A stretch of 64,000 bases of DNA from an uncultured bacterium (GTDB lineage: Bacteria; Bipolaricaulota; Bipolaricaulia; UBA7950; UBA9294). Positions 9,863 through 64,000 of the stretch are shown here, one piece after another; the first letter of the stretch is position 1; each line of letters starts with the position of its first letter. The notes beneath the pieces are model-generated. The model had not been told where the DNA came from. It was given only the letters and a program-made list of their open reading frames with translations, and searched no databases. The DNA is taken from positions 43,064 to 107,063 of the forward strand of contig CAIOGO010000020.1 of NCBI GenBank assembly GCA_903857865.1, written 5' to 3'. The translations under genes and the position numbers were made by a program.

Positions 9863-10630
9863 ATGAACAACACGTTCGTGATGTGGCTCGTTGGCGCCGC
9901 CATCGCGGGCTTAGGCCTTCTCCTGCTCCTCGGAACGCCCGCCGGCGTCTCAACGGAGGCCGCGGGCTCTTCCGCACTCACAGCGAATGGCGCGTCTCCC
10001 GCATCGGAAACGACCTACTGGAAAGACGCAACGCCTGCATCGATCGCCACGGCCCCGACGGCCCTGCTCCTGGCGGCGCCTACAGCGTGCCCATCCTGCG
10101 GGACCGTATCCATGCACGCCAACACCGCTGCGACTCTTGCGGCCCCTGCGCCGTGCTCGTCGTGTGCGGTCACGTCTTCGCGGGCAACCGTCGTTGCATC
10201 GTTGCCGGTCGGCAGCTGCGCCGCTGCGGTTCCGCAAAGGGGGCTGGCCGGGGGATGTGGCCTGTCGATCGCTCCGTGCGCCGAGACCCCGTGCCGCGCG
10301 TTGACCGCCTCCTGCAACCTCGCTTGCGGACCCGAAGTCCCGTGCCGAGACCGCCCCGGGATCAACCGGAACGGCCCGATGTGCGTGGACGAGTGTTCGT
10401 TCGTGCAGCTCTACTCGACGGTCCCTCTGCCCGCCTGCAGCGCGATTCACTTCGCGTGGGCAGCCACTCGAGGTCAATTCCTCGACCCGGCGGCGCCCGA
10501 CCCGATCTACTATGCGCCCGGATCGGCGTTTCCCGGAGGAGAGGACGTCCTCGTCACGCTGACCGTAACGGATGCGCAGGGCAACGAGTACTCCGACCAG
10601 ATCAAACTGCACGTCAACAACTCGCGGTAG
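9863..10630 (+). CDS. Cysteine-rich (20 Cys) secreted or membrane-anchored protein with C-terminal beta-sandwich-like segment, unknown function
   Basis: Hydrophobic N-terminus MWLVGAAIAGLGLLLLLG; G/C-rich third positions unlike the Arg-rich overlapping frames; multiple CxxC/CxC spacings. Confidence 0.6.
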   Translation: MNNTFVMWLVGAAIAGLGLLLLLGTPAGVSTEAAGSSALTANGASPASETTYWKDATPASIATAPTALLLAAPTACPSCGTVSMHANTAATLAAPAPCSSCAVTSSRATVVASLPVGSCAAAVPQRGLAGGCGLSIAPCAETPCRALTASCNLACGPEVPCRDRPGINRNGPMCVDECSFVQLYSTVPLPACSAIHFAWAATRGQFLDPAAPDPIYYAPGSAFPGGEDVLVTLTVTDAQGNEYSDQIKLHVNNSR

Positions 10631-33713: not shown

Positions 33714-34346
33714 TTACGCGTTCGATTCTACCGAGAGAACGCGCAGACGCTCGGCCTCGACGATCGCGCTGAGCTCCCGAACGGCGTTCTCGATCGTGTC
33801 GTTGATCACGAGGTAGTCGAAGATCGGCAGGGCCTCGATCTCGCGCGACGCCACCCGAAGGCGCTCGGCGATCGCCGCCTCGCTTTCCGACCCGCGGGCG
33901 CGCAGTCGCTCGCCCAGCTGATCGAGGGAGGGTGGGGCGAAGAAGACGAACACGAGAACGGTCCCCGGCACCCCAACGCGGCGGAGCTCGCAGGCACCTT
34001 GGGTGTCGATGTTCAGGACGATATCGAACCCCTTGGCCGCAAGCCGCGTGATCTCGCATTCCGACGTGCCGTACTGGTCGCCGAGGTAGATCACGTGCTC
34101 GATGAACGCGCCCGCGGCGACCATTCGGTCGAAGTCGACGGTAGAGACGAAGTGGTAGTCGACCCCGTCTTCTTCGCCGGGGCGCGGCGGCCGCGTCGTG
34201 TGCGATACGGAGTAGACGAGGTCCGGGGTGTCGGTGAGAAGACGGTCGATCGCCGTGTTCTTCCCGGCTCCGGAAGGCCCGGAGACGACAAGCGCGAGAC
34301 CACTCCCCGTCCCTCTGCGGCGGGCGGCGAGCCCGCTACTCGACAT
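33714..34346 (-). CDS. gmk: Guanylate kinase
   Basis: P-loop GPSGAGK, TTRPPRPGEEDGVDYHF. Confidence 0.9.
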   Translation of the reverse strand: MSSSGLAARRRGTGSGLALVVSGPSGAGKNTAIDRLLTDTPDLVYSVSHTTRPPRPGEEDGVDYHFVSTVDFDRMVAAGAFIEHVIYLGDQYGTSECEITRLAAKGFDIVLNIDTQGACELRRVGVPGTVLVFVFFAPPSLDQLGERLRARGSESEAAIAERLRVASREIEALPIFDYLVINDTIENAVRELSAIVEAERLRVLSVESNA

Positions 34347-36110: not shown

Positions 36111-36181
36111 TGGGAGATCGTTCAATGGCAGGACAGCAGGCTCTGGCCCTGTTAATGGGGGTTCGAATCCTCCTCTCCCAA
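36111..36181 (+). tRNA. tRNA-Gln (anticodon CUG)
   Basis: Manual fold: 7-bp acceptor TGGGAGA/TCTCCCA, D-arm GTTC-AATGGCA-GGAC, anticodon arm GCAGG-CTCTGGC-CCTGT with CTG centred after U33, T-arm GGGGG-TTCGAAT-CCTCC; no encoded CCA. Confidence 0.85.
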
Positions 36182-58585: not shown

Positions 58586-59201
58586 CGATGATTAGTGTGC
58601 AGGTTCGCTACATAGCGCACCGACGTCCGCCAGCCTACAAGGGCCTTCCCGCCCTTCTTCTCCTCCTGTTGTGGCGCTGCGCAGTGAAACGCAGAGCCTG
58701 GCGCGAGCCTACAGCCATGCGTTCGTTGGCAGCAAGCGCGTGGCTGCGGAAGGGGAAGCCTCTGAACTCCCCCAGATGAACTGGCCCGCGGGGCCAAAGG
58801 ACTCACCGCGGATGCATCGCTCCCAGACACGCCCAACCGACCGGAACAGGGCTTCGCACGGTGGCCAAACGGGATGCGTGATCGCAAGACCTGCCCCCGG
58901 CGCCCCATGACCCTGCGCCCCGCTACTCAAAGCATCGCGCGAACTTGGATGCGACAGTCTGCTCGCCCTGACCGACTCCGAGAAAGGCGAGGAACGCGCA
59001 TCGTGGTTTGGGATGGATGGGACCGTCCGCTTCACGCCCCTGTGACGTTGGCTGCTTGAGACTTCTGCGACGCCCGAGGAGATCAACATGAAGGCGCCCT
59101 CGCGGAGGAAGCGCTAGCCAACGGAGCCACCCCATCATGACCACCGCGATCCGCTAGAAGCTCGTGCTGGATTGCAAGACCGAACCCCGACGCCGGCGAA
59201 T

Positions 59202-59361
59202 GTCGCACACAAGGTGCGACGCTACATCGAACCTTGCGGCGACGCGCGATCCGTGGTCCGAGATCCCTGTAGCGTCGGAGCTTGCCTCCGACGGTCGCCC
59301 CTGCGGTCTTCGGGGGAGGGCCAGCGGCCCGTCGCACACAGGGTGCGACGCTACAACGTTT
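59202..59361. repeat. Two direct copies of a ~31-nt element containing a GTCGCAC/GTGCGAC hairpin, plus an inverted partial copy between them
   Basis: GTCGCACACAAGGTGCGACGCTACATCGAAC at 59202-59232 and GTCGCACACAGGGTGCGACGCTACAACGTTT at 59331-59361; inverted TGTAGCGTCGG near 59269. Confidence 0.6.
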
Positions 59362-59416
59362 CACAACCACCGCGCGTGACGTCGACGTGGTCCCGCCAAC
59401 GGACCGCGAACTCGGC

Positions 59417-59722
59417 TCACGCACTCAGGTATCGCTTGAGGTCGCGGTAGAAGTTCTCGTGCCCGCCGAGTGCAAGAAGGGTGACCGTCTTCGCTGGCGC
59501 ATCGGGCCAATACGCGAGAAGGTAGATCTGATCCGCAAGCCTGAACTTGTGAACGAACACGCCACGCAGGTCGCCCACCTTCTCCTCGCCAAGCGAGGGA
59601 TCCTGGCAGATGGCGCGGACCTGCTGGTCCACTTCGGCTCGTAGGACGGACGGAAGTCTCTTCTTGATGCGATCGAAATGGTGGACGGAGACGGGGGTAT
59701 AGGGCACGAGCGCTAGCCCCAC
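59417..59722 (-). CDS. Type II toxin, RelE/ParE superfamily
   Basis: ~100 aa basic protein overlapping an upstream RHH gene; start codon uncertain. Confidence 0.7.
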   Translation of the reverse strand: MGLALVPYTPVSVHHFDRIKKRLPSVLRAEVDQQVRAICQDPSLGEEKVGDLRGVFVHKFRLADQIYLLAYWPDAPAKTVTLLALGGHENFYRDLKRYLSA

Positions 59723-59952
59723 TCGTACGGCACGACGTCGCCATCCTTCATCTGTTCGAGAGCCTCGAGGATGTCTGCTCGGAATTGCGGATGAAGTTCG
59801 CTGTATTGGCGGACGTAGTTCTCAATCGCGAGTTGGATGACGTTGCTCGTCGTGCGGCGCTCCGCCTTCGCGATCTCTTCAATCTGCTCGCGTAGCTCCT
59901 GCGACACCTTGGCGGATACTGTCGATGTGGGCATAACGGCCCACTCTAGCAT
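59713..59952 (-). CDS. Ribbon-helix-helix (CopG/Arc family) antitoxin
   Basis: TVSAKVSQELREQIEEIAKAERRTTSNVIQLAIENYV is a typical RHH fold; directly upstream of the toxin. Confidence 0.7.
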   Translation of the reverse strand: MLEWAVMPTSTVSAKVSQELREQIEEIAKAERRTTSNVIQLAIENYVRQYSELHPQFRADILEALEQMKDGDVVPYEWG

Positions 59953-60023
59953 GGATCGTCTACTTCGTCCACTTTGTCATCCGATGTGCTGCAGTGCAAA
60001 ACCGAGCCCCGGCATCGCCGCTC

Positions 60024-60209
60024 TTAGGGGTGGGGCACGGCTAGCGACCGACAGATCTTCTTGGCCAGGATGTCGGGGATCTCGTTGTCGCGGGGAACGG
60101 CCTCCACGTAGCCGGTCCGCGGGTTCTCCCACAGCGAATGGGATGCCCCCTCGCGCTTGAAGATACAGCCGTGGCGTCGCAAATGCTGAAGCAGAGCCTG
60201 ACGCTTCAT
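60024..60209 (-). CDS. hicA: HicA-family toxin
   Basis: 61 aa, LLQHLRRHGC...REGASHSLWENP typical of HicA; 4-nt overlap with upstream HicB-like gene. Confidence 0.8.
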   Translation of the reverse strand: MKRQALLQHLRRHGCIFKREGASHSLWENPRTGYVEAVPRDNEIPDILAKKICRSLAVPHP

Positions 60210-60421
60210 CCGATCTTTACGACATCTCGAACGGCGTCCTTCGGCACTCCCCGCAGGCCCTCCTCGCGACGATCCTCAAGGATCAACTCAATCGCGGAGG
60301 CGAGACTCTGCAGACATTCCTCCCTGCTTCGGCCCTGGCCGTTGGCGCCAGGGATCTCCGGGCAGTAGCCAATGTACCACTCGCCATCCTGTTCAATGAC
60401 CGCAGTGAACTCGTTCCGCAT
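60206..60421 (-). CDS. hicB: HicB-family antitoxin
   Basis: 71 aa, FTAVIEQDGEWYIGYCPEIPGANGQGRSREEC pattern of HicB. Confidence 0.75.
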   Translation of the reverse strand: MRNEFTAVIEQDGEWYIGYCPEIPGANGQGRSREECLQSLASAIELILEDRREEGLRGVPKDAVRDVVKIG

Positions 60422-60722
60422 CGCTACCCCTCCGCCATGGCAGCGTATGGCAAGGCGATCCCGCAGTCAATCATCGGCCGCGATGCACCGCGCACAGGGA
60501 ACGGCAAGAGGCAGGGCGCGGCCCCGCTGCCCGAGGCGAGTACTTGCGCGTTCACCGCGGAGCACGCAGAGAAGCGGGTGATATTGCAGTGCAAGACCAG
60601 ACCCCGTCGCCTCACTCCCGCCACGAACGGAAGAGGAGTTCCGCAGGAACTCCCCAGCTGCCCGGCCACGCAGAGCAGCCCTTGACCAGGCGATACAGCA
60701 TCTGATCCTATCGAGCTCTTCT

Positions 60723-61094
60723 CTACGGCTTGCGGCGCTCCAGATTGACGAGAACGCGGCCGTTCTCTTGCTTGACTGCGTAGGTCTCAAGATCGTGCGT
60801 CCGGACGCCGGCCATCAGCGCGCCCGCCTTGAGGACCCTCGGGATTGGGATCCTCGGATCGCTCACCCGCTTCCCCGTCGCGAGCTCGAACCTCGCCTTG
60901 TGCAGCGGGCAGACGACACAGCCATTCTCGATCTTCCCCTCGTGGAGCGGCCCGTTCATGTGGGGGCAGCGATCGCCGAAGGCGTAGATGCCTTGCCCAA
61001 CCTTGGCGAGGGCGATCTCGCGGTCGCCCACGTCAACCTTCATCATTCCCCCGTCGGGGATCTCCCCCACCGCGGCGATGTCCTTCCATTCCAT
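60723..61094 (-). CDS. Rieske [2Fe-2S] domain protein (ferredoxin-like)
   Basis: CPHMNGPL ... CPLHKARF = Rieske CxH...CxxH ligand pairs; start taken at MEWKDI. Confidence 0.7.
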   Translation of the reverse strand: MEWKDIAAVGEIPDGGMMKVDVGDREIALAKVGQGIYAFGDRCPHMNGPLHEGKIENGCVVCPLHKARFELATGKRVSDPRIPIPRVLKAGALMAGVRTHDLETYAVKQENGRVLVNLERRKP

Positions 61095-61271
61095 GGTGAG
61101 CCTCCTTCTTTGCCGCGCACACTCTGTCACTTCAGGAGGATTGAGCCAATTCGGTCGCCCACCGCACTCTCAGAAGAGCATCAATGCGAGATTGCGGGCC
61201 TGACTCAGCGCCCTAGTCTGCCAGCTTCCGACCCCGCCGGTCGACCCCGTCGCCCTCGAAAGTCAGCCGCG

Positions 61272-61691
61272 CTAGAAGACCCCGCGGAGGAAGGCAGCGG
61301 CTTCGTCAGAGATGCCGACGATCTTGTCGGTTGCTTGGCGGTAGAACTTGAAGTTGAGCTCAGTCTCCGGGCGACCGTCGTCCCAGTCGGAGAAGGGTTT
61401 GAGCTCGCTTCGTCCAAGGCGGCGCTTCGCGAGCGCGGTGCGCCGGACGGTGATGGTGACGCGCGGCGTCTGCCGGGCGAGCCCGGACTTCAGCGGAGTT
61501 GGTTCGGCCGAGGTGACGATCCCGCTCGCGATCAGGCCCGAGCCGCCCTCGTTCTCGCTCGCGAAGATGAAGATCGTGTCGCCCGCAGCGACCTTCTTGC
61601 CGCCGTACATCGTCTTCTGGTTCGCGAACGCGAACGTCTCTGCCCCAGGGTCACGGACCTCGGCCTTGATCGCGTACGCTCTCTCCCCCAT
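61272..61691 (-). CDS. Hypothetical protein (139 aa), unknown function
   Basis: Coding-like codon bias; no recognisable family. Confidence 0.5.
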   Translation of the reverse strand: MGERAYAIKAEVRDPGAETFAFANQKTMYGGKKVAAGDTIFIFASENEGGSGLIASGIVTSAEPTPLKSGLARQTPRVTITVRRTALAKRRLGRSELKPFSDWDDGRPETELNFKFYRQATDKIVGISDEAAAFLRGVF

Positions 61692-61757
61692 TACCCTCCG
61701 AGGAACCTGTGACCACTTGTGCTCGAGTGTCCCCGATAGATGGGGACTTGAAGCGCC

Positions 61758-62243
61758 CTAGCTCACCTTCTGCGCCAGGTCCCGCGCGAAGGCTTCGGCT
61801 CGCTTGAGATCCTCGACGTTCGGCCGCTTCTTGTTGAGGCCGCCGAAGTACCGGAGGAACATGTTGGTGTTGAAGCCGGGGCAGCCGAACTCACTGACGA
61901 TCGCGTAGCCCCTGGCCTCGAGCTTCGCGCGGAGAGCCGCGTGGTTGCTGCGGATGAAGCCCTCCGTGACGATGAACGCTGGGGCGCCGCAGGTCGAGAA
62001 GATGAACGCCTTCTTGGCGTCGACCGAGGGCAGCTTGTCGGCAAGATCGAGAATCGGCTTGTAGTGCTTGCCGCTGTCGATTCCCGAGCCGAAGCCGACG
62101 AGGTCGTACCCGGCAAGCTCCGCCGGACTCACTTCGCGTGGCGCCACGATCCTTGCACCGAGAACCTCTGCGAGGACCTTGGCCACGGCTTCCGTATTCT
62201 TGTGATGGTACGAGTGCAGCACCAAGAGACTCTTGATCGACAT
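61758..62243 (-). CDS. Flavodoxin-like fold protein
   Basis: N-terminus SLLVLHSYHHKNTEAVAKVLAE typical of flavodoxin-like reductases. Confidence 0.7.
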   Translation of the reverse strand: MSIKSLLVLHSYHHKNTEAVAKVLAEVLGARIVAPREVSPAELAGYDLVGFGSGIDSGKHYKPILDLADKLPSVDAKKAFIFSTCGAPAFIVTEGFIRSNHAALRAKLEARGYAIVSEFGCPGFNTNMFLRYFGGLNKKRPNVEDLKRAEAFARDLAQKVS

Positions 62244-62392
62244 GCGCTTCCCTCCGTCTACGGGGCTTCTGTTCAGAGAGTGATTCTACTCCCGGCGTAG
62301 TCCTTCCCTGCTCACGTGCGCTCGACAATCCCTTCCGCGGGATGTCGGTGCGTTGTTGCACCCGGGACCTCGTCCCCGCACATGATGCAGGC

Positions 62393-62698
62393 TCATCCCG
62401 AGCGGACGTAGACCACCACTTCTTTCTCGAGCCGACTCCCCAGGCGATCCCGCTCGACTTGCAGGTCGTAGTGGACCTGCAAGTTCGACCAGAACGTCTC
62501 CGTCATGCCGAAATAGCGGGCCAGCCGCAGGGCTGTGTCCGGGCTGATCGCCCGCTTGCCATGCACGATCTCGTTGACACGGCGCGGAGCGACCCCGATG
62601 TCCTTCGACAGCCGATACTGGCTAATGCCAAGCGGCTCAAGGAACTCCTCCATCAGGATCTCGCCGGGATGTACTGGCGCCATCTTCTGTGCGGCCAT
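62393..62698 (-). CDS. higA: HigA-family antitoxin (XRE-type HTH)
   Basis: VHPGEIL...LGISQYRLSKDIGVAPRRVNEIVHGKRAISPDTALRLARYFG; RBS GAGGAGG before ATG at 62698, 10 nt after higB stop. Confidence 0.8.
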   Translation of the reverse strand: MAAQKMAPVHPGEILMEEFLEPLGISQYRLSKDIGVAPRRVNEIVHGKRAISPDTALRLARYFGMTETFWSNLQVHYDLQVERDRLGSRLEKEVVVYVRSG

Positions 62699-62708
62699 GG
62701 AAACCTCC

Positions 62709-62990
62709 TCAGTGGTAGTCGACCATCTCCACACCGTACGCATCGCCGCGCTTCCACTCGAAGCACAGCCGCCACTGATCATTGATTCGAATGCTGTACT
62801 GACCCTCCCGGCGGCCCGAGAGCTTCTCCAGCCGGTTTCCCGGTGGAACACGCAGGTCCTGTAACGAGCCCGCCGCATGAAGGATGGCGAGCTTCTTCCA
62901 CGCGGCTCGTCGGAGATCTGGCGAGAAGTCCGGCACCCGGTCGCGTGCGAAGACCAGCCTGGTACGCGAGTCAGCGAAGGTCCGGATCAT
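62709..62990 (-). CDS. higB: HigB-like toxin (RelE/ParE superfamily)
   Basis: 93 aa toxin-first arrangement typical of higBA. Confidence 0.8.
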   Translation of the reverse strand: MIRTFADSRTRLVFARDRVPDFSPDLRRAAWKKLAILHAAGSLQDLRVPPGNRLEKLSGRREGQYSIRINDQWRLCFEWKRGDAYGVEMVDYH

Positions 62991-62998
62991 CGTTTCGT

Positions 62999-63027
62999 AT
63001 AATAACGCTGTGCGATAATACCGTCAA
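62999..63027 (-). promoter_or_regulatory. Promoter TTGACG-17 nt-TATTAT immediately upstream of higB (leaderless mRNA)
   Basis: Read on reverse complement; -10 ends 8 nt before the higB ATG. Confidence 0.45.
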
Positions 63028-63221
63028 GGGACACTATGGCAAAGGCGCTGCCCAGAGTGAGAACTCGCCCGCCGGGCAATCCGTGGTAGGCCCCGACGCC
63101 AGAGCGCTATCCCCTCGCCAGCAGGGATCCTGATGCGATAGGCTCAATCCCGCTACCTGTACTGGGCCTATGCGAGGAGTCAAGACCTCACCCCGCCGCC
63201 GTGATCCCAACACCGATCGCC

Positions 63222-63282
63222 CGAGATGAGTATTGTGTCCCCGGAACTCGGATCGAGATGAGTATTGTGTCCCCGGAACTCG
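63222..63282. repeat. Tandem direct repeat, two ~30-nt units
   Basis: CGAGATGAGTATTGTGTCCCCGGAACTCG occurs twice back to back. Confidence 0.7.
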
Positions 63283-63387
63283 CCGCATGCCATCTACAAG
63301 ACCGGCGGACCGTTCTGCCCTCCCGCTCTGAAGGAGGCTTGACATTCGATACAGCATCTAACCCCGTCGCCCGACGCGCAGGCTGAC

Positions 63388-63879
63388 TCACCCACAGCGC
63401 AGGCGACAGAGGCTGGCGATCAGCAACAGCGTCCAGATCAGCAGCAGCGCGCCCTCCAGGACGTAGTACCAGCTCTTCTGCACGCCTTCATGTGAGAACA
63501 CCCCGGTGTGGTTCGTCATCACCGGCCCGCAGTGGTTGCGGATGTTCCCCTCCAGTTTCTTGCACCGGTCCAGCTTCTGACTCTGGTACGATCGGAAGAC
63601 GTGAGTGAACCTGAGGCTCGCCAAGTTCACGACAAGCCCCAGCGTTGCGATCCCCGCAACGAAGCTCAACCGCAGCCAATGTCCGCGTCCGCCGAAGAGC
63701 GCACTCCCGACCGCTGCAAGAAGAATCGCATTCGCCGCAGTGAAAATGCTGATGACCTGCCACAGAAGGGAGTTGTAGTGCTGCGCCGAGTCCTGCGCCG
63801 CTTTGTACTCCTGGAGCGCGACCTCCAATCTCTTCTCCTCTGGCACGATGATGGTATCAGGGTTCTCGTGACTACACAT
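63388..63879 (-). CDS. Membrane protein, unknown function
   Basis: Two long hydrophobic segments; RBS AAAGGAGAA before ATG; visibly lower G+C. Confidence 0.55.
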   Translation of the reverse strand: MCSHENPDTIIVPEEKRLEVALQEYKAAQDSAQHYNSLLWQVISIFTAANAILLAAVGSALFGGRGHWLRLSFVAGIATLGLVVNLASLRFTHVFRSYQSQKLDRCKKLEGNIRNHCGPVMTNHTGVFSHEGVQKSWYYVLEGALLLIWTLLLIASLCRLRCG

Positions 63880-64000
63880 CTCGTTCTCCTTTTCTCGCTC
63901 CTGGCGTCTGGGCCAGGTCGTCTTGGATGGCCTGCAGCTCTTCGAGCGCGGCTTGGAGGTCTTCGATGATCTCGGCGGCGAGGACGTCGGGGCGTGATGT
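63872..64000 (-). CDS. 3' end of an unidentified gene (coiled-coil-like tail) entering from beyond the window
   Basis: Open frame to the window edge reading ...LAAEIIEDLQAALEELQAIQDDLAQTPG with G/C-rich third positions; not in ORF track because it lacks an in-window start. Confidence 0.35.
   Translation of the reverse strand, partial: TSRPDVLAAEIIEDLQAALEELQAIQDDLAQTPGARKGERDV

Follow-up and report, generated by a model that had tools for sequence, protein, structure and literature searches.

Bacterial defence and addiction islands bring together toxin-antitoxin (TA) pairs and restriction genes, integron arrays and clusters of attC sites lacking integrases (CALINs) line up small co-oriented genes that include TA pairs, and a third kind of system is built on short extragenic repeats, REP (repetitive extragenic palindromic) elements and REPINs, together with the REP-associated tyrosine transposases (RAYTs, also TnpA_REP) in arrangements described as 'REPtrons' (PMC3116915, PMC5581495, PMC8266576). 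Here we analyse a 64-kb stretch of DNA from an uncultured Bipolaricaulota bacterium (assembly GCA_903857865.1, contig CAIOGO010000020.1; hereafter the window), near whose end nine small genes, every one on the minus strand, lie between 59.4 and 63.0 kb and resemble each of these systems in part. The block that holds them (58.6-64.0 kb) is probably the distal third of an accessory TA/restriction island of at least 15 kb, pieced together from small units with REP-like copies between them. The island is of a common type in which two details are mildly unusual, an EVE-like protein of a family known from integron cassettes and a REP family found across phyla.

As in other defence and addiction islands, the TA pairs stand beside a type IIL (MmeI-family) enzyme and a nucleotidyltransferase pair, in DNA of low G+C and variable content with a stable core flank (DUF1232, MFS). 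The upstream part of the island was read on contig L001, which was found by exact look-up of the 8xMP protein, is identical to the window over 10.6 kb save for 1 mismatch and extends the sequence by 9.9 kb past position 64000, so that 74 kb of this genome could be read. Past the window end, on the same strand, lie an open reading frame (ORF) of 46 amino acids (aa) and a gene for an MmeI-family restriction-modification enzyme (1144 aa), followed further upstream by a Polbeta nucleotidyltransferase with a 151-aa partner, ORF6N and a 1034-aa HD-CE protein. At L001:9868-10492 the 46-aa ORF and the 8xMP gene share sequence with one another and with the end of the MmeI-type gene; as both stay with that gene in at least five contigs, they may serve the restriction enzyme as an accessory pair. 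Downstream of parE, 830 nt without a credible gene are followed by genes for a PDZ protein, a membrane protein, DUF1232 and an MFS transporter. The G+C content is 0.628 in the block and 0.617 past position 64000, against 0.659 in the rest of the window; the lower G+C that the initial annotation had ascribed to the flanks thus belongs to the block itself and to the DNA past 64000, whereas the left flank is at the window average. Unlike typical islands, this one has no integrase, tRNA target or direct-repeat att borders that we could find in the 74 kb, and non-defence cargo (the Rieske ferredoxin and the flavodoxin) is interleaved with its defence genes.

A GGDEF/GAF protein of the window clusters at 90% identity or more with one from a Candidatus Bipolaricaulota metagenome-assembled genome (MAG), and thirteen contigs of the same population have an identical gene order. 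Two contigs from two other samples (L219 and L008) match L001 only from position 10508 (window 63372), a junction (J1) that falls on the first base of GGGCGACGGGGTTAG..., about 15 nt past the 8xMP stop codon. Upstream of it they carry a different gene with a weak Eco57I-methylase match, encoding at least 492 aa (L219:2-1480, L008:1-579) in place of the MmeI/46-aa/8xMP block, which we read as a restriction-gene swap between strains. At a second junction (J2), contig L002 follows L001 to window 63033|63032, the upstream edge of the higB promoter, and then diverges into a tail that has no match in the window or L001. In a related 49-kb contig the core flank of DUF1232 and MFS is conserved, together with genes for, in this order, a flavodoxin, proteins of 110, 37 and 135 aa and a Rieske protein; this contig has no higBA, hicBA or parE, and carries a nucleotidyltransferase pair at the place of higBA and Lactamase_B and redoxin genes at that of hicBA, parE and PDZ. 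Another variant has IS21-family genes directly upstream. In the locus of a related MAG (L011), the Rieske gene is followed by a 135-aa gene and then a catalase gene, the first two in reverse order with respect to the window; for the Rieske unit, blastn homology begins inside the REP-like copy at 61183-61215 and ends with the stop codon, and for the 139-aa unit it is limited to the ORF. Since a related locus keeps the small genes without the TA pairs, the TA pairs appear to be the most variable layer and the three small genes older residents. The proposal of variable addiction- or defence-island DNA is therefore supported by TA and restriction content, by the lower G+C and by differences among strains and relatives, and the synteny comparison found the block variable, with the TA pairs absent from the 49-kb contig and two alternative junctions.

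Profile searches with Pfam and NCBIfam (and, for the 139-aa protein, PADLOC and a PDB sequence search) confirmed the three TA pairs and the Rieske, 139-aa and flavodoxin-type genes that had been annotated on the minus strand from the sequence alone (Table 1). The higBA and ribbon-helix-helix (RHH)/ParE-like pairs are assigned to type II TA modules by family match of both partners. For the HicA/HicB-like pair the family matches are sub-threshold only (24 bits each), with support from PDB matches of the HicB-like protein (TTHA1756, E 8e-5; TTHA0281, E 0.013). The three pairs share with the described type II families (higBA, hicAB, parDE/relBE) overlapping or abutting frames, with 10 nt common to the RHH antitoxin and ParE-like toxin genes and a 4-nt ATGA overlap between the hicA- and hicB-like genes, as well as the toxin-first order of higBA and antitoxins with a helix-turn-helix (HTH) or RHH fold. 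They differ from these families in that HicA and HicB fall below the Pfam thresholds and in that the ParE-like toxin belongs to PF15781, unlike the classical PF05016. The Rieske protein has the complete CPH...CPLH ligand motif, and all its scores against the NCBIfam ferredoxin-subunit models lie under the respective cutoffs. Homologues of the flavodoxin-family protein at 60-89% identity carry PF12641 in precomputed annotation.

The spacers of the block hold a repeat family of about 30 nt, GGCGnCGGGGnnnGGTCTTGCrATCaCGCAT when read on the gene strand, with five copies in the window, all on that strand, and two more plus one inverted in the 9.9-kb extension. Its 13-base core, exact or with one mismatch, occurs in the window only at these five spacer copies and once at 34294. 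The latter match (34294-34309, plus strand, GCGAGACCACTCCCCG; 1 mismatch to the core) lies outside the island and is probably due to chance because the REP profile gives it no support. This profile (nhmmer) was built from 108 copies taken only from other genomes; it also matches the extension at L001 3967-3992 (E 4e-6) and 412-431 (E 1.5e-3), and all its significant matches in the window and L001 are on the gene strand. The better-preserved window repeats are thus, by profile similarity, homologous to a RAYT-linked family described below. All window copies lie within the last 5.2 kb of the 64 kb rather than being widely dispersed, and the remaining 58 kb of the window has no profile match below E 8. 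Positions 412-431 and 634-652 of L001 form an inverted REP pair, whereas the window copies are otherwise single. The nearest likeness to a REPIN is the element at 60580-60722, which folds as an imperfect doublet: its REP-like copy (60581-60611; profile match 60590-60607, E 0.033) pairs with an imperfect inverted partner at 60691-60713 around three inner hairpins. The locus shares short extragenic repeats with REP/REPIN-RAYT systems, but unlike in those systems the copies here are mostly single, decayed, of one orientation and confined to the island, with no RAYT gene within 74 kb (tblastn with the RAYT of L104 against the window and L001, best E 0.69).

Two other explanations of the repeat were rejected. 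The spacing fits a sigma-54 promoter (GG-N10-GC), but the conserved block is far longer than a promoter needs, the copies stand anywhere between 34 and 427 nt from a start codon, and the same sequence brackets transposase genes elsewhere; a duplicated tRNA 3' end is no better, the only tRNA gene being a tRNA-Gln at 36111 with no similarity to the repeat. Weak echoes (GGCGnCGGGG) of tandem mini-repeats that precede the 25-mer in other genomes, both described below, are visible in the window spacers at 63345-63372, 63170-63200, about 63070-63095 and 61225-61260. A separate 38-nt block, GCCGCGCCCTGCCTCTTGCCGTyCCCTGTGCGCrGTGC, is 95% identical between window 60485-60522 and L001:4051-4088, in each case about 90 nt downstream of a REP-like copy and upstream of the hicB or the ORF6N gene, and may be a shared leader or promoter piece.

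To place the repeat, 185,579 species genomes were scanned with an 18-base version of it, which gave at least 118 loci, a number by itself close to chance expectation. An extended, almost invariant 25-mer, GGGGTCAGGTCTTGCAATCACGCAT, is present in 67 of the 118 loci listed, and 27 of these 67 carry at least two within 8 kb; inverted doublets are frequent. The hosts include Chromatiaceae, Gallionellaceae, Methylococcaceae, Burkholderiales, Nitrospirota, Rokubacteria, Actinomycetes, Pirellulaceae and Binatia. At three loci (L104, L106, L040) a gene of about 280 aa with a Y1_Tnp domain and a C-terminal HTH lies between inverted 25-mer copies; against a cutoff of 80, the NCBIfam model for REP-associated tyrosine transposases (REP_Tyr_transpos) scores 79 bits for L104 and 85 bits for L106, and the gene of L040 was identified by similarity only. 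REP families are usually regarded as specific to one lineage (PMC3116915, PMC5581495, PMC8266576), in contrast to this 25-mer, which is almost invariant across several phyla and was found in none of the papers searched. Among 148 ORFs near 25-mer copies elsewhere, 4 encode Y1 transposases, about 10 are TA-like and the rest are of every kind, which rules out that its neighbours are mainly TA genes; we claim no enrichment.

Several features of the 25-mer loci were seen in passing. In proteobacterial arrays the 25-mer lies directly against attC sites with the junction ...CGCAT-nnn-GCCTAAC (L067, L087, L088, L105, L108, L063, L033); in L067 an attC model match (2365-2454, 44 bits) abuts a REP copy (2456-2481). 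REPINs may insert beside attC hairpins, or REP-only cassettes may exist. Two to four tandem mini-repeats, nnnnnGGGGTCA, stand directly 5' of the 25-mer in L134 (where GGACCGGGGTCA occurs three times), L106, L116, L125, L077 and L035, and could be footprints or binding-site iterations. In Thioalkalicoccus limnaeus (L103:3020-3200) a truncated RAYT (MARPLRIELAGGLYHVTSRGDRRE...) directly follows a REP copy of the '...ATCCAGCAC' variant, and a higBA homologue (49% and 44% identical to that of the window) lies 1.2 kb further on, followed by another REP copy. Seven Streptomyces loci (L020, L036, L048, L057, L068, L078, L107) have in common a conserved stretch, longer than 80 nt, around GGTCTTGCAATCCCGCAT (...CACCGTGTAGCCGCCAGCGATTTACCCACTTGCCGGCGCATGCGCGAGAGA); lacking the GGGGTCA extension, it is a separate conserved element that matched the search pattern by chance.

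The protein encoded between the Rieske and flavodoxin genes (139 aa) matches nothing in Pfam, NCBIfam, PADLOC or, by sequence, the PDB; together with three relatives at about 50% identity, it matches no Pfam family, EVE included, at E <= 10, and a match to L24 (E 0.29) was discarded as chance. With an alignment of homologues at 44-63% identity, AlphaFold2 gave a mean predicted local distance difference test (pLDDT) score of 94.9, whereas a shallow alignment of sequences at 78-89% identity gave 46.5 and was unusable. The confident model, the structure prediction suggested for this protein at the outset, is of a PUA-like beta-barrel, the fold common to EVE, ASCH and YTH domains, and invariant aromatic residues of the family are F20, F22, Y29, F43, W103, F114 and Y117. 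On the strength of this modelled fold, the protein probably reads modified bases. EVE domains do so, and the prokaryotic ones typically stand in restriction and TA contexts (PMC7641849, PMC7897488). Like the fast-evolving EVE domains of defence and TA neighbourhoods (PMC7641849), the protein is found among such genes here, and in comparison with other EVE/PUA-like readers (THYN1, the EVE-HNH enzyme VcaM4I, ASCH, YTH) it is a small stand-alone protein. Its family, unlike those EVE domains, is not fast-evolving: it has at least 8000 homologues, all scored candidates passing E <= 0.001, in 697 clusters at 50% identity, and the best 120 of these homologues, which carry names from two or more phyla, are 78-89% identical to the 139-aa protein; two of the 120 are named from Bipolaricaulota and Xanthobacteraceae MAGs. 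It also differs from known EVE domains in being carried mostly as an integron cassette, with textbook cassette borders at many loci elsewhere. Such conservation in a mobile gene argues for a strongly selected function, probably the reading of modified nucleic acids.

The initial annotation had also described hairpins or repeats in each spacer, long non-coding stretches with repeats and a promoter of higB's own. The long stretches are present (58586-59416, 830 nt; 62991-63387, 397 nt), the former treated as non-coding because its ORFs match no Pfam family. The repeats are likewise present, while hairpins are less general than claimed: when the minimum free energy (MFE) of eight stretches was compared with that of shuffled sequences (200 for the significant ones), only two of the eight beat the shuffles, 62244-62392 (z -3.8) and 60580-60722 (z -3.25), and the parE-side spacer folded no better than its shuffles (z -0.7, -1.7). 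The spacer at 62244-62392, an outer 13-bp stem around three hairpins, has no Rfam match, no REP copy and no homologue among the fetched loci. As for the promoter, the proximal -10 element of TTGACG-17-TATTAT ends 8 nt ahead of the higB ATG, and the scan, which rests on consensus match only, found 2 sigma-70-like sites against 0.7 expected; it found no further such site and no intrinsic terminator on the gene strand of the block. The tandemly duplicated 29-mer CGAGTTCCGGGGACACAATACTCATCTCG is a second repeat family, confined to this lineage; a related motif, GAGATCGGGGGACACATACCCTAT, follows the Rieske and 135-aa stop codons in the related MAG (L011:1750-1775, 2330-2355).

Table 1 Genes, repeats and other features of the block in window coordinates. 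Scores are from profile searches unless stated otherwise.
Feature	Position	Strand	Evidence
REP-like copy, best preserved in the window	58873-58904	-	GGGGGCAGGTCTTGCGATCACGCAT, 2 mismatches to the 25-mer; nhmmer E 7.8e-7 (58873-58899)
REP-like copy, '...ATCCAGCAC' variant	59164-59194	-	nhmmer E 1.1e-4 (59165-59189)
Non-coding spacer after parE	59195-59416	-	two 28-nt direct copies (59202-59229, 59331-59358) with an inverted partner between
ParE-like toxin gene (RelE/ParE superfamily)	59417-59722	-	PF15781, 98 bits
RHH antitoxin gene	59713-59952	-	PF07878, 32.8 bits; PF01402, 23.6 bits
Degenerate REP-like copy in the 71-nt hicA-RHH spacer	59990-60016	-	1 mismatch to the core; not significant, unreported by nhmmer
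HicA-like toxin gene	60024-60209	-	PF07927, 24 bits, under cutoff 27
HicB-like (UPF0150) antitoxin gene	60206-60421	-	PF21748, 24.1 bits, under cutoff 27.3
Structured 143-nt element after the Rieske gene, resembling a REPIN	60580-60722	-	MFE -66.5 kcal/mol, z -3.25, 0/200 shuffles as good
Small soluble Rieske [2Fe-2S] ferredoxin gene	60723-61094	-	PF00355, 66.5 bits; 123 aa from the ATG at 61094
Strongly degenerate REP-like copy on the upstream side of the Rieske gene	61183-61215	-	blastn L011 vs L001; nhmmer E 1.9
Gene for the 139-aa EVE/PUA-like protein	61272-61691	-	no Pfam model; predicted fold
Flavodoxin-family (Flavodoxin_3) gene	61758-62243	-	PF12641, 24 bits, sub-threshold in the window scan
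Structured spacer between higA and the flavodoxin gene	62244-62392	-	MFE -64.5 kcal/mol, z -3.8, 0/200 shuffles as good
HigA antitoxin gene (HTH_3)	62393-62698	-	TIGR02607, 107 bits; PF01381
HigB toxin gene	62709-62990	-	PF05015, 66.7 bits
Two overlapping sigma-70-like promoter matches	62999-63042	-	consensus match
REP-like copy	63170-63200	-	6 mismatches to the 25-mer; nhmmer E 7.4
Perfect tandem duplication of the 29-mer CGAGTTCCGGGGACACAATACTCATCTCG	63222-63282	-	repeat search
Motif GGGCGACGGGGTTAGATGCTGTATCG after the 8xMP stop codon	63345-63372	-	REP-like by eye only; unreported by the REP profile
8xMP membrane-protein gene	63388-63879	-	PF24838; last gene of the MmeI restriction block that continues past the window

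Taken together, we propose that the island would have grown by separate acquisitions of self-contained units at a variable locus. These units would be the higBA, hicBA-like and RHH/ParE-like operons, the single flavodoxin, EVE/PUA-like and Rieske genes and the upstream restriction-modification block, most of them separated by decayed REP-type copies oriented like the genes. The 139-aa gene would derive from the integron-cassette pool, and the TA pairs would form the most recent and most variable layer. The REP-like copies could be relics of REPIN-type insertions into spacers, or short homologies used for exchange. Judged by their families, the TA pairs may act as autoregulated addiction or abortive-infection modules that hinder loss of the island, while the interleaved genes may be unrelated cargo, possibly read through from the higB promoter.

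Some observations weigh against this interpretation. Three of the copies are too degenerate to stand alone (E 1.9, E 7.4, and 59990-60016 unreported), the REP-like label of the J1 motif is a reading by eye that the profile does not report, and the spacers between higA and the flavodoxin gene and between the flavodoxin and 139-aa genes hold no copy, so that REP copies do not delimit every unit. The 25-mer stands beside all kinds of genes elsewhere, and its presence near TA pairs may be incidental. Junction J2 comes from one metagenome contig that may be a chimeric assembly, and it is not on a repeat. The order of the flavodoxin, 139-aa and Rieske genes is kept at the same locus in one relative, which makes part of the block an older segment with synteny inside the lineage rather than a fresh assembly. 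Finally, a RAYT, a distant integrase and genome-wide REP copies are possible outside the 74 kb read.

Instead of relics, the REP-like copies might be working sites, between which a RAYT-type Y1 transposase acting in trans would move or swap units on single-stranded DNA wherever two copies are co-oriented; we consider this unlikely. Elements of the IS200/IS605 type have both ends in the same orientation. The significant copies of the window resemble such ends in being co-oriented with the genes, J1 falls on the first base of the by-eye REP-like motif after a stop codon in two independent contigs, and the Rieske unit common to L011 starts inside a copy. Elsewhere, co-oriented copies at a spacing of about 1 kb separate TA pairs in Sterolibacterium (L054) and a Burkholderiaceae MAG (L106), a Burkholderiales MAG (L041) has a similar co-oriented spacing with no TA genes identified between the copies, and the 25-mer abuts attC hairpins in the proteobacterial arrays. 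However, no RAYT gene was found in the 74 kb, the copies are decayed (68-87% alike), suggesting old relics, the J1 motif is undetected by the REP profile, two unit borders lack a copy and J2 is off any copy. RAYT genes themselves lie between inverted rather than direct copies, the neighbours of the 25-mer elsewhere are of every kind, and RAYTs are described as domesticated single-copy genes that spread REPINs and not cargo (PMC5581495, PMC8266576). If this mechanism were true, RAYT-driven exchange of units, TA pairs and former integron cassettes included, would amount to cassette exchange in parallel with integrons and would explain a near-invariant 25-mer found across phyla, beside TA pairs and against attC hairpins.

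It is less probable still that the flavodoxin, 139-aa and Rieske genes form one electron-transfer module kept by the flanking TA pairs, an idea raised when the block was first annotated. The three genes do share order and locus with the related 49-kb contig, where the 110- and 37-aa ORFs are inserted; in L011 the 139-aa gene has the Rieske gene as its direct neighbour, in L017 and L138 it is no more than about 1.3 kb away from the flavodoxin gene, and a catalase gene is nearby in L011 and L017. Against this, the 139-aa protein has a predicted EVE/PUA-like fold, suggestive of base reading, and no match to a cofactor-binding family. Its homologues have a distribution independent of the other two genes: at 80 metagenome loci with such a homologue, a Rieske gene is present at 0/80 and a flavodoxin gene at 1/80, and the Rieske/139-aa order is reversed in L011. 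The flavodoxin family is an ordinary one with a largely lineage-bound divergence gradient (names from Bipolaricaulis and Thermotogota), and a 64% paralogue lies on a 190,696-bp contig that is apparently the island-bearing contig. This gradient, set against the near-identity of the 139-aa protein among listed homologues named from two phyla, indicates different histories of the flavodoxin and 139-aa families. From the 80-locus counts and the EVE-like fold we conclude that the trio is not a co-travelling module and that its middle member is no redox protein.

A sedentary chromosomal integron array or CALIN, with units captured by IntI as cassettes at attC sites and stabilised by TA cassettes, is highly improbable. 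The likeness is genuine in that short co-oriented genes with interspersed TA pairs have a promoter-like site at higB only and include a member of the 139-aa family, which occurs as true cassettes in soil metagenomes and on contigs with a protein named from the Xanthobacteraceae MAG. There GTTAGGC precedes it by about 55 nt and a GCCTAAC...GTTAGGC attC follows its stop codon, and its neighbours are typical cassette cargo (GNAT, GFA, DUF1697, SnoaL, VapBC). We aligned 27 attC sites from soil cassette arrays carrying 139-aa homologues into a covariance model (R1). On held-out loci it found 9 sites each in L208 and L204, at up to 66 bits, and it also found sites in L195, L143, L188, L186, L012 and L013 and in the proteobacterial REP loci L067, L063 and L088, with scores from 66 to 20 bits in L208, L204, L195, L143, L012 and L067. 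The same model found nothing at E <= 1 in the window, L001, L011, L017 or L016, and with filters off its best hit in the island (L001 1-16500) reached 9.8 bits (E 0.8). A scan for RYYYAAC...GTTRRRY pairs with L-box pairing, an insensitive method that missed positive-control sites, found none at the module junctions; of its four plus-strand matches, three were within or mostly within ORFs and one was in the spacer upstream of the HD-CE gene. No integrase is among the precomputed Pfam matches in the 9.9 kb past position 64000, where an integrase or recombinase had been thought worth looking for, or in the 6 kb downstream, and the 9.9-kb extension has no gene called as a recombinase. Moreover, in the unit common to L011 the repeat stands 5' of the gene and the stop codon marks the end, the reverse of how a cassette is built. 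Canonical integron membership is therefore, as far as the available sequence allows, largely refuted, neither attC sites nor an integrase having been found in it; what survives of the cassette-array idea is that the 139-aa gene belongs to a family of the integron cassette pool elsewhere.

Ordinary core chromosome, that is, a vertically inherited cluster without special mobility, is very unlikely indeed: the identical order in thirteen contigs of the same population, a flavodoxin family that looks lineage-bound and a gene orientation matching the leading strand suggested by a steadily falling GC skew would suit it, but it is contradicted by J1 (L219, L008) and the other content of relatives between the same core flanks, and the second alternative junction, a G+C 3-4 points lower, the TA and restriction genes and the cassette-pool origin of the 139-aa gene also speak against it.

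The accessory island that we favour is thus one more variable TA/restriction island, in a poorly studied phylum, and this reading corrects a tempting misreading of the block as an integron or a redox operon. Two of its components reach beyond this lineage. The 139-aa protein represents a family with at least 8000 homologues and no Pfam or NCBIfam model that is commonly an integron cassette. The 25-mer, whose associated RAYT has a C-terminal HTH, hardly varies among Proteobacteria, Nitrospirota, Rokubacteria, Actinobacteria, Planctomycetes and others; a REP family that spreads horizontally and sits at module borders would matter for understanding the assembly of accessory islands.

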